A DNA stretch of 64,000 nucleotides from a virus. Taxonomy: Duplodnaviria > Heunggongvirae > Uroviricota > Caudoviricetes. Position numbers: made by a program. Each line of letters opens with the position of its first letter. The first letter of the stretch is position 1. The stretch spans positions 39,131 through 103,130 of IMG/VR virus record IMGVR_UViG_651053023_000001, one strand, 5' to 3'. Positions 21,001 to 27,000 of the stretch are shown here, in pieces.

Positions 21001-24000
21001 GCACACATCGCGATACACTTCTAAGCCAGACGTGGCGCGGCCTGCAACGATCAGGGATCTATATGGATCTAATTGGGATCTGTATGGACCTAATTATTGG
21101 ATCTACCCAGTGGATAATGTGGATAAGTGAAAAACCGGCCAACATAGCCGGTTGGAAGGAAGGGTATTATTCTACGCTTTCGATAAGAAGACCATGTTCA
21201 TAACATTTAAGCTCATCGCCTTCGTACAGGAATTGGTATCCAATACCACCATTTTCATGGACATTAGGGAATAACTCATAACTCACTGAAGAGCAAATCA
21301 CACCAATGCAACGCTCAACGCCTTCTCGTTCTTCAGTGCTGAAAAAATCCTCTTCGGTAAGAACATGAGTACATTGCTCATCAGCATAGGTCGGAAATAC
21401 ATGCTCGATGCAATCCGGGTGTTTTAAACCAAGCTGATCGGCAAGCTCGAAAGCATGACGGTATTGTTCAGATCCTGGCTTGCCAACAGTGATGTGCTCA
21501 ATTTTGTAGATTGAAGTCGCTTTGTTGATAGTTTGCTTTACTGTTACTTTATCAGACATAAAAATCCCTTTTAGTTACCGCTGATAGCGCGGTTGTAATC
21601 ATTAACGTTGCGATTCTTCCTGTTAATCCCCATCAGCATCGTTTCTGTATCGAGGATATACGCTGGCAGATCATCAAAATATTCACTGCTAAACTCTGGC
21701 ATCCTGCACATAAATGCACTTTTTGGGGCAGGGTGGTTAACCTTTGTCGGCGTCGGCGTTAAATTCGCTGATCGACTCCCGGAGCAACCGCTGAGTGTCA
21801 GCAGGAATACGCTGGCGAACATTACCCGCCGCAACAAGTTGTTTCTGAACTTCAGCTTTTCGTTCCATTTGCCTGTCAGCATACTTGGCTTGTTCTGATT
21901 CATTTTTCACTTCCTGGCTGTGAAAATGTTGCTCTGCTTTGTTCATCGTCTCAATGGTCTGGTTAAGATCCATTATTGACTTATCACGTTCCTTAACAGC
22001 CTGATCAAGACTGCCAATTTTCTCCATGGCTTGCTTTAGCTGATGACGTTCCCACGCAAACCCAGCACCAACAAGTGCGCAAATCAGAACAAGAACACCA
22101 GTAGCAGCAAGTTTCTCCTTCAAAGACAAAGCTGTTTTTAACGTAGAAAAGAATGACATGTCTTCCTCCTGAAGAAAAATTATCAATGAAGTCCTTTGTT
22201 ACCGTGCCGCTTTGTTTAATTCATCAAGAACAGAATCAGGAACCAAAGCGGCGACTGCGCTGGCTGTGCTGGCCTTATTTGCTGATGCTTCCGCAAGCGC
22301 GGTACCGATAGCATGGTTATAAGCAGTTATGGCTACGTTGGCGCTTTCATTCGCTCGTTCATACTGCTGTTGTAACGCAGTTGTGAGTGCTGTTGTCTGG
22401 TTGAAAACAACCCCAAACTGTTCAGTTGCTACTTTCAGAGATTCAATTTGCTCTTCTGTTAGTGCTGGTGGGGGAGTGGCAGTGCCGCCGCCTGAACCAG
22501 AGCCTGACGAGCTTCCTGAGCCAGTGTTAAGGGTCTGGTTAATCTCCCCCATAGCAGCGACTAAACTTGATCGATAGGAATTTAAATCCCCAAAAGACTA
22601 AAAAAGCACCACAAAACGGATGTTTCTTCAACACCCCTTGTGCACCATATGAGCGGAAACGACTATTAAACAGGATGACACTGATTGATACAGGGTATGA
22701 ATGGCGGTTTTTTGCTCCGTTTCCGGTAAAATGGACGCAACTTCCCCTCTGCGGCTCTCAGCCGCACACCTGCTGTCGTGCCAAGTCGCTCATGCATCAG
22801 GACCAGCTCTGCCAGTCGGTAACCCCGCTTCAGCCCCGTAAAACGCATCTGACTTCCGCACAGAATGCACTTCAGCGGGTCAACCTTCAGTAACCTCTGA
22901 TACATCCCTCTCCACCTGATTTGCATCGCCGTTTTTCTCACCGTCTCCGTTATGACGTACACAACTTCTTCCAGTAACCGGCGCTTCACCGGACTCAGGA
23001 AACCGTAGTACCTCACCATACGGAACCCCTTATCTGCTACATGCCAGGAGAACCTTTCCATGAACTCATCTCCACTCATCAACAGGTATTCTTCCCGTTT
23101 TGTACGGTGACTGTTGTAACGCAGACCGATTTCATCCTGACCGGCATAATGCTCCAGCCGACTCATCGGCACCGGTGGCTTTTTCAGGTAAGAGCCGAAG
23201 TACACCGCCACATGTGTGGCGTTATCCATCACCCTGGATATGTTGACATTCCAGCCGCGGCGGTAATGCGTGTCCAGGAAGCAATTCCAGTCCCGTTTGC
23301 TGTTTCCTTCCACTGCCAGTTCATCCGGTATCACCAGCTCCGGGTATTTCCGGGACAGTAGCCGCGTTATCCGGTAACGCCACATGCTCATCACCTTACG
23401 GGCGTAAAAATGAAGATTTTTCCAGGTGTGGCCCGACGTCACACCACCGGCAGTTGTCGATAAATGGATATGCGGATGCCACTGCTGGTCACGCCCCCAT
23501 GTGTGGATCACCGTGAATATCCCCGGCTCCACATCTGTCTGATGGCAGATTTCCAGTATCACATCCGCTGCAATGCGGCTCATCTCTGCCAGTAACCACC
23601 GGTTGTGGAACACCAGGGACCAGTACTGGCAGGGAAGTGTGAACACAATATGCTGCCACGGGCAGTCGGGGACCAGGCTCAGCAGATACTGTATCCACTG
23701 TGCGCCAGCCTTCACCCCGCAGTGCGGACAGGAGCGGCTTTTACACCGGAAGCAGACCTTTTTGGTGTGGCAACAGTCCGGTGACGAACAGCACCATTGC
23801 GTGTAGCCCATCAGCGTGGTCCCGCATGCCATGATTTTTGTCACTGACTCAGTCACCACCGGACGCACTGAACCTTCCGGCTGTTTCTCCAGCCAGTTAA
23901 GCCAGCGGTTACCCTGCTGAAAAATGTCGGCAAAACGGGGAAGCATCAGAAGGCGGGGGGACTCCGTCCGGCCAGTGAACCGTGCCACACTCCGGGCAGT

Positions 24001-27000
24001 ACATGCCGCCGGCGCTGATACCGGCAAGAATGGTCGCAAACTCCCGCTCCGTGCAGCGGGCTATTTCAGGATACCCTTCGTCATCGACACGAACAAACCA
24101 GAAGACCAGCTTTTTGTTTCCGGCATCCACAAAGAAGGGAATATTCAGGTCTGCGCAGCACTCAACGGCATCGTCAAAATTATCAAAGCGCAGAGCTTCT
24201 GCGTCTTCTTCGTCAAAGAAGTCATCGTCGTGAAGCTTCACGACATAGCGGGGAAGTTTGCTTCTTTGAGGGGCAGGTTTTCGTTTACGGGGTTTAGCTG
24301 AACGGGACATATAACTACCTGAAAGACAATGATATTGTCTGTTTTTATAACGGTAATTTCAGGCCATGACAAGCCGCAGCCGCCAGGCTGCCTACTCGAT
24401 GTATTAAGCGCGTTTACAGCGTCCTCAAGCGATTTAGTAATAGTCACATCACCAATGGCAATAGAGATCGGCAGTTCTGATACTTCTCGCTCATTAGCAC
24501 GGCAGTAAACATCCCAACCAATATCGAGTTGAAGCAGCATTGACAGATCTGCATAACCAGCCAACAGGTCCGCGTGCTTAGTTGCCAGTTCTCCAATGTT
24601 CGTTAAGCCGGTTGTGGTTGTTCTGATCGTTGAAACATAGCTGGTAATAGTGTCGGGATAGACAATTGTATCCAGAATTAATCCGGTCAATTCTTCTGCA
24701 AGCAGTTTTGCTGTGTTAGCACTGTTTCGTGCCGATGTTATGGCACCAGGTGTTTTCATCCCACCGGCGGCGGCCAATTTTTTATATGCGGATAACTGGT
24801 AGTCTTTTTCCAGCATGATATCTCCTAACTTACCTGAACCAGGCCGTCTCCGGACGCTACGGTAGATCCGCATGAAACAGGGTCACCAACGCATACGATC
24901 CCTTTACCATTGACGGTAAACCATGCCCTGGTTGATATAGCTTGCCCACCGTGCGTACTGTTTCCATCGGTATGCTGTGCATATTGCTTACCATCAACTA
25001 ACACTTCGACTCCGTTGACTTTAAGTAGTGGTTCACTCTCTACAGGAGGCCTGGATGGGAATCCTCCGTGCCCCGAACAAATGCTGTCTTTTGTTGCAAT
25101 ACTTGCCACGTCATCACCAATTATTTGCTCTGATTTTCGTTATTTTAACTCAGGTTGTTTGTGGTCTACATGGAGTTCAACTATTGCAAAATTGCTCTAA
25201 TAAATATTGTTTTTTATGTCGTATTTTCGGTACCATTCAGCCATCGCCCTTCAATGGGCATTTGTTTGGAGTCGTCAGATGCAGATGGAGCTAATAAGCC
25301 GCAAGGAGTTCGATAGCCGTGTAACCAGCGGTGAACTCGACAACTTGCAGGCTATCAAGGTGAAAGAAGGCTTTTGCCTCATTGGGAATCAGAGCGGAAC
25401 AAATCGCGTTTTTATGCTTCGCCGTACGGATTTGAAGCCATTTGTCTGGAAGAACGAAATTGGTCCCAGCTCATACGCTCAAACGAGGGGGTGCCACAAC
25501 CTGGCCTTTTTCTACAAAGACGAGCTTTCTGTGGTTGATATTCAAGGGTTACAACATGTTTAAGCACTGGAAAAACATTACTATTTATAAACTTTCTCGT
25601 GAGGCGGATCTGACCGACTTAGAAGATAAAAAGAAAATGATCCTTTTCACGCCATGCGGTAGTCAGGATATGGCCAAGTTCGGTTTTGTATCTCCATTTG
25701 GTGATAATTCCGAAGTTATCGCTATGCATGGAAATGGTTTTATCCTTGTTGAAGCAAAGCGCGAAACAAAAATTCTTCCCCCGCCGGTTATCCAGCGAGC
25801 TATTCAAGAAAAAATTGAAAAACTTGAGCAAGAACAAGCGCGTAAACTGAAGAAAACAGAGAAGGACTCCCTGAAAGACGAAGTTCTGCATTCTCTTCTG
25901 CCACGGGCTTTTTCAAAGTTTTCTGTTATCCAGGCGATCTACGACGGTTCAACTAAACGTATCTATATCAATGCCAGCGCGCGGCAGGCAGAGGATATGC
26001 TCGCGCTTATGCGTAAGTCTCTGGGTTCTCTTCCTGTTGTTCCCCTGAGTGTTGAAAATCCCATTGAATTAACGCTGACCGACTGGGTACGTGATGGTAG
26101 TGCTCCACAGGGATTTCAAATGGGGGATGCGGCAGAACTTAAGGCAGTGCTTGAGGATGGCGGTATTGCCCGAGTGAAAAAGCAGGATTTGGGAAGCGAT
26201 GAAATTTCCACACACCTGGAAGCTGGCAAGCTCGTTACTAAGTTGGCACTCGACTGGCAGAACCGCATTAAATTTACACTGGACCATAACTTCAGCCTTA
26301 CCAGCGTCAAATTTGCGGATGAATTGCTTGAGCAGAACTCTGATATTGATAGTGAAGATGTTGCGCAGCGACTGGATGCAGATTTCTTCCTGTTGACCAG
26401 TGAAATTTCGTGCCTGGTTGATGCTCTGGTAAATGCCCTTGGTGGAGAGGCTAAGCAGTGAAAGAGCTGTGCTATGGATCTGTTTGCAGTGGAATTGAAG
26501 CCGCGAGTATTGCCTGGGAACCGTTGGGTATGCGTCCGGCGTGGTTTGCTGAAATCGAGCCTTTTCCATCTGCCGTTCTTGCGCACCGCTGGCCCCATGT
26601 CGCCAACCTTGGCGACATGACAAAACTTGCCAAAAAAGTCCTGGCTGGGGAAATCGAATCCCCTGATGTGCTCGTCGGGGGTACGCCTTGTCAGGCATTC
26701 AGTATCGCGGGCTTACGTGGTGGGCTTGATGATGAACGCGGCGCGCTAACTTTGAAGTATGTGGAGCTTGCAAATGCAATTGACGACAAACGGTCTGAGT
26801 CCTTCCTCAAACCGACAGTTATCGTCTGGGAAAATGTCCCAGGAGTCCTGTCATCGGCAGATAACGCCTTCGGATGTTTCCTTGCCGGATTGGCTGGAGA
26901 AGATGCGCCATTTGAACCAGGTGATCGACCTGAATCAGGAAAAAGTAACGCGTTCTGGCGGTGGGATGGCAAAACCGGTTGCCATGCTCCAAAGTGGCCG

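Follow-up and report, generated by a model that had tools for sequence, protein, structure and literature searches.

A complete IS91 element splits the baseplate gene upfB of a P1-like phage-plasmid

RESULTS

IS91 in upfB

We analyzed a 64,000-nucleotide stretch of viral DNA (positions 39,131 to 103,130 of record IMGVR_UViG_651053023_000001; hereafter the window), which is part of a P1-like (Punavirus) phage-plasmid of porcine enterotoxigenic Escherichia coli (ETEC). Positions 22570..24398 almost certainly represent a complete copy of IS91, the type member of its family of HUH/Y2 rolling-circle transposons, which was gained by a simple and accurately terminated insertion and splits the gene upfB after codon 159. 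A first-pass annotation made from the sequence had placed an IS91-family element at 22560-24873, between accessory genes. The element is indeed present, but its bounds were misjudged: the start was 10 bases off, and the end took in 475 bases of phage backbone (24399..24873) that form the 5' part of upfB. The location was also mistaken, as the element lies inside a virion baseplate gene. The element itself is already known and is already annotated as IS91 in GenBank, among the proteins of an E. coli UMNF18 plasmid with which the window is identical or essentially so.

The proposed HUH transposase of the IS91 family was confirmed at the protein level. TnpA matched Pfam Zn_Tnp_IS91 (PF14319, 1e-18) and Y2_Tnp (PF04986, 1.1e-38), and scored 287.4 bits over residues 5-365 against NCBIfam NF033538 (IS91 family transposase), for which the cut-off is 125. 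The HUH motif HPHIH was located at residues 157-161, and the tyrosine pair Y249/Y253 was located within YFGSY (249-253), with the YxxxY spacing. The exact protein sequence is found in AEJ60209.1, 'IS91 transposase (plasmid) [Escherichia coli UMNF18]', and in a PIR record named 'transposase tnpA (insertion sequence IS91)'. At the nucleotide level, 80% or more of the element was present in 931 E. coli records, and the best full-length identities were 97.5-98.2% over 100% of its length, to copies named 'IS91-like element IS91' by the Prokaryotic Genome Annotation Pipeline. The published isoform criterion, at least 95% nucleotide identity over the full length, refers to the IS91 reference itself (PMC13181058). 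Since orf121, which is unique to IS91 in its family (PMC13181058), is present and CTCG stands at the ter end, the element is IS91 proper. Nothing was found that argues against this identity.

Element ends and target site

Region 22000..25400 was compared by megablast with phage genomes. Each of 18 P1/P7-type records matched it in two pieces with 46% query coverage, and approximately 1.8 kb was missing in all of them. Phage P1 and phage Ro157c2YLVW lack exactly the 1,829 bp of 22570..24398, so the alignment of the flanks to P1-like genomes, which the first-pass annotation had put forward as a check, is interrupted. In local BLAST alignments, the left break fell at window positions 22571/22572 and the right break at 24393/24394, and the two pieces seemed to overlap by 6-7 bases. 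A target duplication was considered from this overlap and rejected, as the overlap contains only 'GAT'/'G' microhomology and one mismatch, and the junction was fixed by eight other copies of the element.

These eight full-length copies represent unrelated contexts: besides two chromosomes, they stem from a ColE1-type plasmid of 5.9 kb, an IncHI2 plasmid of Salmonella and several plasmids of ETEC. Because its ends lined up with those of the eight independent copies, the element was assigned to 22570..24398 (Table 1), with oriIS at the lower-numbered end and terIS at the higher-numbered one. In tnpA orientation, all compared copies begin with CGAGTAGGCAGCCTGGCGGCTGCGGC and finish with GGGGATTTAAATTCCTATCGAT, and CAAG or GAAC, the reverse complements of CTTG and GTTC, directly follows the ori end in nine out of nine copies. 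The 50 nt at the ter end showed two differences from the compared copies, and at both positions the window agrees with isoform L003. The terIS region contains the subterminal palindrome GCAGCC-TGGC-GGCTGC, a TATAAA box reported as the -10 element of Porf121, and the terminal cleavage tetranucleotide CTCG at 24395-24398 on the plus strand. Both ends are thus intact, with CTTG beside oriIS and CTCG at terIS, which refutes a reading of the element as a fragment.

The window junctions read AAACTTG/ATCGATAGG on the left and CCTACTCG/ATGTATTAAG on the right. From flank to flank the occupied site is CTTG/ATCGATAGG...CCTACTCG/ATGT, and the uninterrupted reference site reads CTTGATGT, in the wider context AAACTTGATGTATTAAG. 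Target duplication is absent at 22570..24398; the two ends differ from each other, and the insertion lies 3' of a specific tetranucleotide. IS91 is described with oriIS beside a CTTG/GTTC target, terIS cleaved at CTCG, and no target duplication (PMC13181058).

Each end sequence (22 nt at ori) occurred once in the window versus zero expected, and no second, partial or stray-end copy of IS91 was found elsewhere in the window. DNA folding of the ends was uninformative (z-scores of -0.9 to +0.45), and the ends rest on their identity with the other copies. A promoter and terminator scan gave two promoters versus 2.7 expected, with nothing above shuffled sequence.

Disruption of upfB

The upfB gene of P1 lies on the minus strand, encodes a protein of 281 amino acids (aa) and overlaps upfC at the end of the latter. 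When 22199..22569 and 24399..24873 were joined in silico, an uninterrupted 281-aa UpfB was restored, nearly identical to UpfB of Ro157c2YLVW. The neighboring 211-aa open reading frame (ORF) was rightly noted in the first-pass annotation to terminate inside the element, and the suspicion that a backbone gene had been truncated or fused also proved correct: the ORF joins residues 1-159 of UpfB to 52 residues that result from an out-of-frame reading of the IS91 ter end. Its product is an exact match to AEJ60210.1 (UMNF18_pP7051), encoded on the same contig as AEJ60209.1. On the upstream side, upfC adjoins upfB and overlaps its start.

The predicted ppfA promoters of the P1 annotation, P1ppfA and P2ppfA, are located within the 3' part of upfB, downstream of the insertion, and are largely conserved. 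Accordingly, ppfA, mlp and upfA need not be silenced. A 2026 cryo-electron microscopy study assigned UpfB to three trimeric 'tripods' that are attached to UpfC, the spike tip of the P1 baseplate (PMC12810830), and upfB was non-essential for plaque formation when knocked down by CRISPR interference (PMC10695390); the knock-out results, as cited in that paper, place upfB in the same class. It follows from this non-essential status that the insertion is probably tolerated by the phage.

The 211-aa and 117-aa ORFs should accordingly be annotated as two halves of upfB, not as separate genes. The window plasmid, like the relatives that share its junction, is a natural upfB knock-out and could serve to ask what the tripods do. 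In other respects the insertion is routine and the element well known, and the value of the finding lies mainly in annotation.

Extra base in tnpA

The tnpA ORF of the window encodes 426 aa versus the 395 aa of the common IS91 TnpA, with which it is identical over residues 1-388. An extra T at 22784 changes GAC-TGG to GACTTGG and shifts the frame at codon 389, by which the terminal seven residues, ARQQVCG, are swapped for a 38-aa tail; the site lies beyond the conserved transposase core. Across 366 complete-genome E. coli records, a 61-nt probe with the extra T at its center had 522 matching places; all of them scored 60/61, so the extra T is present in none.

The tnpA ORF was reportedly named ORF426 in the original description of IS91 from 1992; the term ORF426 was found in no paper by literature search. 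For the reference TnpA now in use, a mass of 47 kDa is stated for the His-tagged protein (PMC13181058). The computed mass of the 395-aa protein (47.3 kDa) fits this value and that of the 426-aa protein (50.8 kDa) does not, so the historical 426-aa ORF seems to have been revised.

This revision, the lack of the extra T from every other complete genome, and a source record that is not within the RefSeq complete-genome or PLSDB collections searched are all in line with the extra T being an artifact of sequencing or assembly, in which case the true TnpA would be 395 aa long. We regard such an error as a real possibility, though on balance we lean against it, as the same 426-aa sequence is present in two independent records (PIR and UMNF18) and the site is a change from T to TT with no long homopolymer. 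The extra T could be a real, if rare, allele, or else both records acquired the error independently; the 426-aa TnpA allele, which matches the original ORF426 of 1992, may be a genuine natural variant rather than an old sequencing error.

orf121 and mosaic structure

A second difference from most IS91 copies was found in orf121. A 1-nt deletion in a run of C, three codons ahead of the normal stop, extends the product to 133 aa; the ORF now overlaps the first 38 nt of tnpA, and the canonical overlap of orf121 stop and tnpA start, TGATG, is lost. TGATG is present in 80.6% of isoforms, the stop/start overlap raises downstream expression in reporter fusions, and 133-aa Orf121 forms are among the natural isoforms (PMC13181058). 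Three of the copies that we retrieved (L008-L010) also carry the 133-aa form. As this form is a known isoform class, the loss of TGATG does not exclude membership in IS91. The 133-aa ORF is an exact match to AEJ60039.1, encoded on a different UMNF18 plasmid, and its product agrees with Orf121 of L003 at 119 of 121 aligned residues, with an altered, extended tail.

The window copy is a mosaic. Positions 1-455 of the element, covering terIS and orf121, resemble the minority isoform, and positions 456-1000 resemble the common type at 99.8%. Positions 1-455 fall into two segments with 100% and 96.7% identity to L003 versus 94% and 90% to the common type; the second, the ter/orf121 segment at 89-455, is approximately 90% identical to the commonest isoform and 96.7% identical to L003.

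Related insertions in other P1-like plasmids

The upfB junction of the window was also found in other material. The full 211-aa fusion had no match in the contig index, and a 192-aa version starting from an internal Met had one, a Logan contig of SRR4179081 that ends inside the insertion sequence (IS). A near-identical partial fusion protein, MFW3075722.1, is recorded from another isolate. Plasmid pIDPH8234-2 (O111:H8; NZ_CP077454.1, L011, 4297-6130) has the identical CTTG of upfB occupied by an IS91 isoform of 1,828 bp that is oriented as in the window; this isoform is 92.5% identical to the window copy overall, 99-100% over the 480 bp on the ter side, and 74% over the 150 bp on the ori side. 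Its terIS abuts hrdC at a position equivalent to 26154 of the window, directly after a second CTTG (26150-26153), and the adjacent deletion of approximately 1.75 kb includes the 5' part of upfB, upfC, uhr and part of hrdC. Such an arrangement would be expected if two direct IS91 copies had recombined, or after an intramolecular IS91 event. In pE94-3 (NZ_CP119743.1, L012, 4010-5838), an independent, simple IS91 insertion lies precisely 3' of GTTC in ppfA, in the opposite orientation relative to the backbone.

These shared junctions raise the possibility that the insertion is not due to transposition in this plasmid lineage and is instead an older upfB::IS91 allele common to P1-like plasmids, which other IS91 copies have since altered through recombination or gene conversion. 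The same junction in the SRR4179081 assembly and in MFW3075722.1, the well-conserved ter side and diverged ori side of the isoform at the identical CTTG in pIDPH8234-2, and the L003-like and common-type parts of the window copy would all fit such a history, which we consider conceivable and somewhat short of probable. IS91 is target-specific, and independent hits at a single CTTG are therefore plausible; moreover, an older allele concerns the history of the element and not its identity, and is compatible with the simple insertion of IS91 into upfB.

It is a good deal less likely, and in our estimate improbable, that the upfB CTTG is a recurrent landing site for IS91 in P1-like phage-plasmids, with functional consequences of its occupation. 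If it were, the tripod protein UpfB would be lost, which could push these elements toward a plasmid-only lifestyle or alter infectivity, and the occupied CTTG may seed IS91 deletions or one-ended mobilization of upfC-uhr-hrdC-dmt. The seeding of deletions is suggested by pIDPH8234-2, because its deletion ends just after the second CTTG.

Proposed course of insertion and present mobility

According to published IS91 biology (PMC13181058 and works cited therein), TnpA would have nicked oriIS, one strand would have been displaced as far as terIS, and a single-stranded circle would have gone in 3' of CTTG or GTTC. In the window, termination at terIS was accurate. The outcome is the loss of full-length UpfB; the 211-aa UpfB(1-159)-IS fusion ORF is left behind, as is a 3' remnant that lies upstream of ppfA and contains promoters.

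Whether the window copy is mobile at present is uncertain. The transposase core (residues 5-365) and both ends are intact. Two points weigh against current activity, namely the tnpA frameshift at 22784, with a count of zero among the 522 complete-genome places, and the loss of the orf121-tnpA overlap that favors co-expression. Both would also suit a dead copy, immobile on its own and persisting as a mere scar or as a substrate mobilized in trans by other IS91 copies, in which the native seven C-terminal residues of TnpA have been replaced and the arrangement that raises expression is gone. We think a dead copy unlikely, as the frameshift falls after residue 388, beyond the NF033538 span, the HUH motif, Y249/Y253 and the zinc-binding motifs, both ends are perfect, and 133-aa Orf121 isoforms recur in nature.

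One-ended transposition and the enterotoxin gene

In 1-10% of IS91 events termination fails, and DNA beyond terIS is then taken along (PMC13181058). The first-pass annotation had considered one-ended transposition relevant to toxin cargo elsewhere in the phage-plasmid; this was not supported, as no DNA was co-mobilized beyond terIS and the toxin gene estA is IS3-flanked and distant. Phage sequence resumes at the first base after CTCG, with no donor DNA beyond terIS, and because the backbone resumes there directly, the insertion was terminated accurately. Over 24394-43625, the window and phage Ro157c2YLVW are largely collinear; the exceptions are short variable segments and a dmt intein that the window lacks.

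The estA gene, encoding the heat-stable enterotoxin (ST), lies 21 kb away from terIS, and the IS-rich block of 4.9 kb that contains it (43626..48495) is absent in Ro157c2YLVW. The block holds two direct IS3-family copies that bracket estA and contain a 300-nt, 100% identical direct repeat (43629-43928 and 47195-47494), and it looks like composite-transposon-style cargo in a P1-like phage-plasmid. Although the one-ended events known for IS91 and a read-through direction toward the estA side are in its favor, it is extremely improbable that one-ended transposition brought foreign DNA, possibly the toxin cargo, into the phage-plasmid, as the joined flanks restore upfB exactly, and for the insertion at 22570 the mechanism was ruled out by the precise junctions and the collinear backbone. 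A second IS91 copy forming a composite with the toxin block was also considered and was not found in the window.

No sequence sign linking the IS91 copy to the toxin cargo was found in the window, and no role of IS91 in the arrival of the enterotoxin gene in the phage-plasmid could be detected. A read-through that began at oriIS and continued past terIS would proceed to higher coordinates, and from this direction alone a future co-mobilization of estA by IS91 is conceivable.

Phage-plasmid backbone

Near the insertion, the genes repA, upfA, mlp, ppfA, upfB, upfC, uhr, hrdC and dmt follow the order of phage P1 (NC_005856). The repA/oriR segment at 19534-21024 is of P1 type, with an 861-nt repA; it was unmatched in the replication region of Ro157c2YLVW and pIDPH8234-2, which has an 885-nt RepB-family gene, and both flanks are at least 97% identical. 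As judged by these comparisons, the segment appears to be a swapped replicon module. The dmt gene of the window does not contain the approximately 1-kb Hint/LAGLIDADG intein that is present in dmt of Ro157c2YLVW and in the SRR4179081 contig (L013, 3072-6359). The listed dmt ORF encodes 672 aa versus 754 aa in P1, with a short non-matching stretch at 27181-27363.

Table 1. Coordinates of the IS91 element, the split upfB gene and other features of the window
Feature	Position	Strand	Basis
Complete IS91 element, 1,829 bp	22570..24398	minus (genes)	Absence in P1 and Ro157c2YLVW; end identity
Target tetranucleotide 5'-CTTG-3' abutting oriIS	22566..22569	plus	Flank of nine copies; specificity in PMC13181058
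oriIS end region, downstream of tnpA, ending GGGGATTTAAATTCCTATCGAT	22570..22665	minus	Last 50 nt identical in nine copies
terIS end region	24311..24398	minus	Feature definitions in PMC13181058
tnpA, 426 aa, ATG 23946 to stop 22666	22666..23946	minus	Pfam; NCBIfam; exact protein match
Longer, TTG-started version of the tnpA ORF, 457 aa	22666..24039	minus	ORF list
Extra base in tnpA (T in tnpA orientation)	22784	minus	Absent in eight aligned copies
orf121 homologue, 133-aa 'stop-loss' form	23909..24310	minus	Alignment with eight copies
upfB'-IS91 fusion ORF, 211 aa	24238..24873	minus	Alignment to UpfB of P1 and Ro157c2YLVW
upfB 3' remnant, codons 160-281	22199..22569	minus	Joining restores UpfB; P1 annotation
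117-aa ORF, UpfB C-terminal remnant from internal Met	22199..22552	minus	Alignment to UpfB of P1 and Ro157c2YLVW
upfC (PAAR spike-tip protein), intact	24825..25109	minus	Pfam PAAR_motif; NCBIfam PAAR domain; P1 annotation
repA	19989..20849	minus	P1-type gene order
dmt	26458..28476	plus	P1-type gene order
estA, heat-stable enterotoxin ST	45314..45547	plus	Pfam Enterotoxin_ST (PF02048, 1.5e-21)
IS3-family (IS1203-like) copies, direct, bracketing estA	43592-44889 and ~47160-48455		
IS66 fragment, within estA block	45842-46261		
IS21 istA fragment, within estA block	46187-47161	minus	

Comparison with known systems

Activity of the IS91 family is already on record for P1-like plasmids of porcine ETEC, with ISEc84 and IS91 in pSvP1 (PMC6906374). 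The backbone region repA-upfA-mlp-ppfA-upfB-upfC is common to the window, pE94-3, pIDPH8234-2 and pSvP1, as are precise insertions 3' of GTTC or CTTG. Plasmid pSvP1 differs in its multi-copy, ISEc84-mediated inversions and an acquired segment of an ETEC plasmid (PMC6906374), whereas the window has a simple insertion only.

The closest known system is the IS91 prototype from E. coli alpha-hemolysin plasmids (X17114; ISfinder IS91), with which the window element has in common a length of approximately 1.83 kb, orf121 followed by tnpA, oriIS and terIS ends as in annotated copies, the CTTG target, CTCG at terIS, and no target duplication. It differs from common IS91 isoforms in the extra T near the 3' end of tnpA and in the 1-nt deletion that yields the 133-aa orf121. 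The HUH/Y2 transposase, the asymmetry of ori and ter, tetranucleotide targeting and one-ended transposition are also features of IS801, IS1294 and the ISCR elements; these relatives lack orf121 and have GTTC at the ter end, in contrast to the window element, which has orf121 and CTCG.

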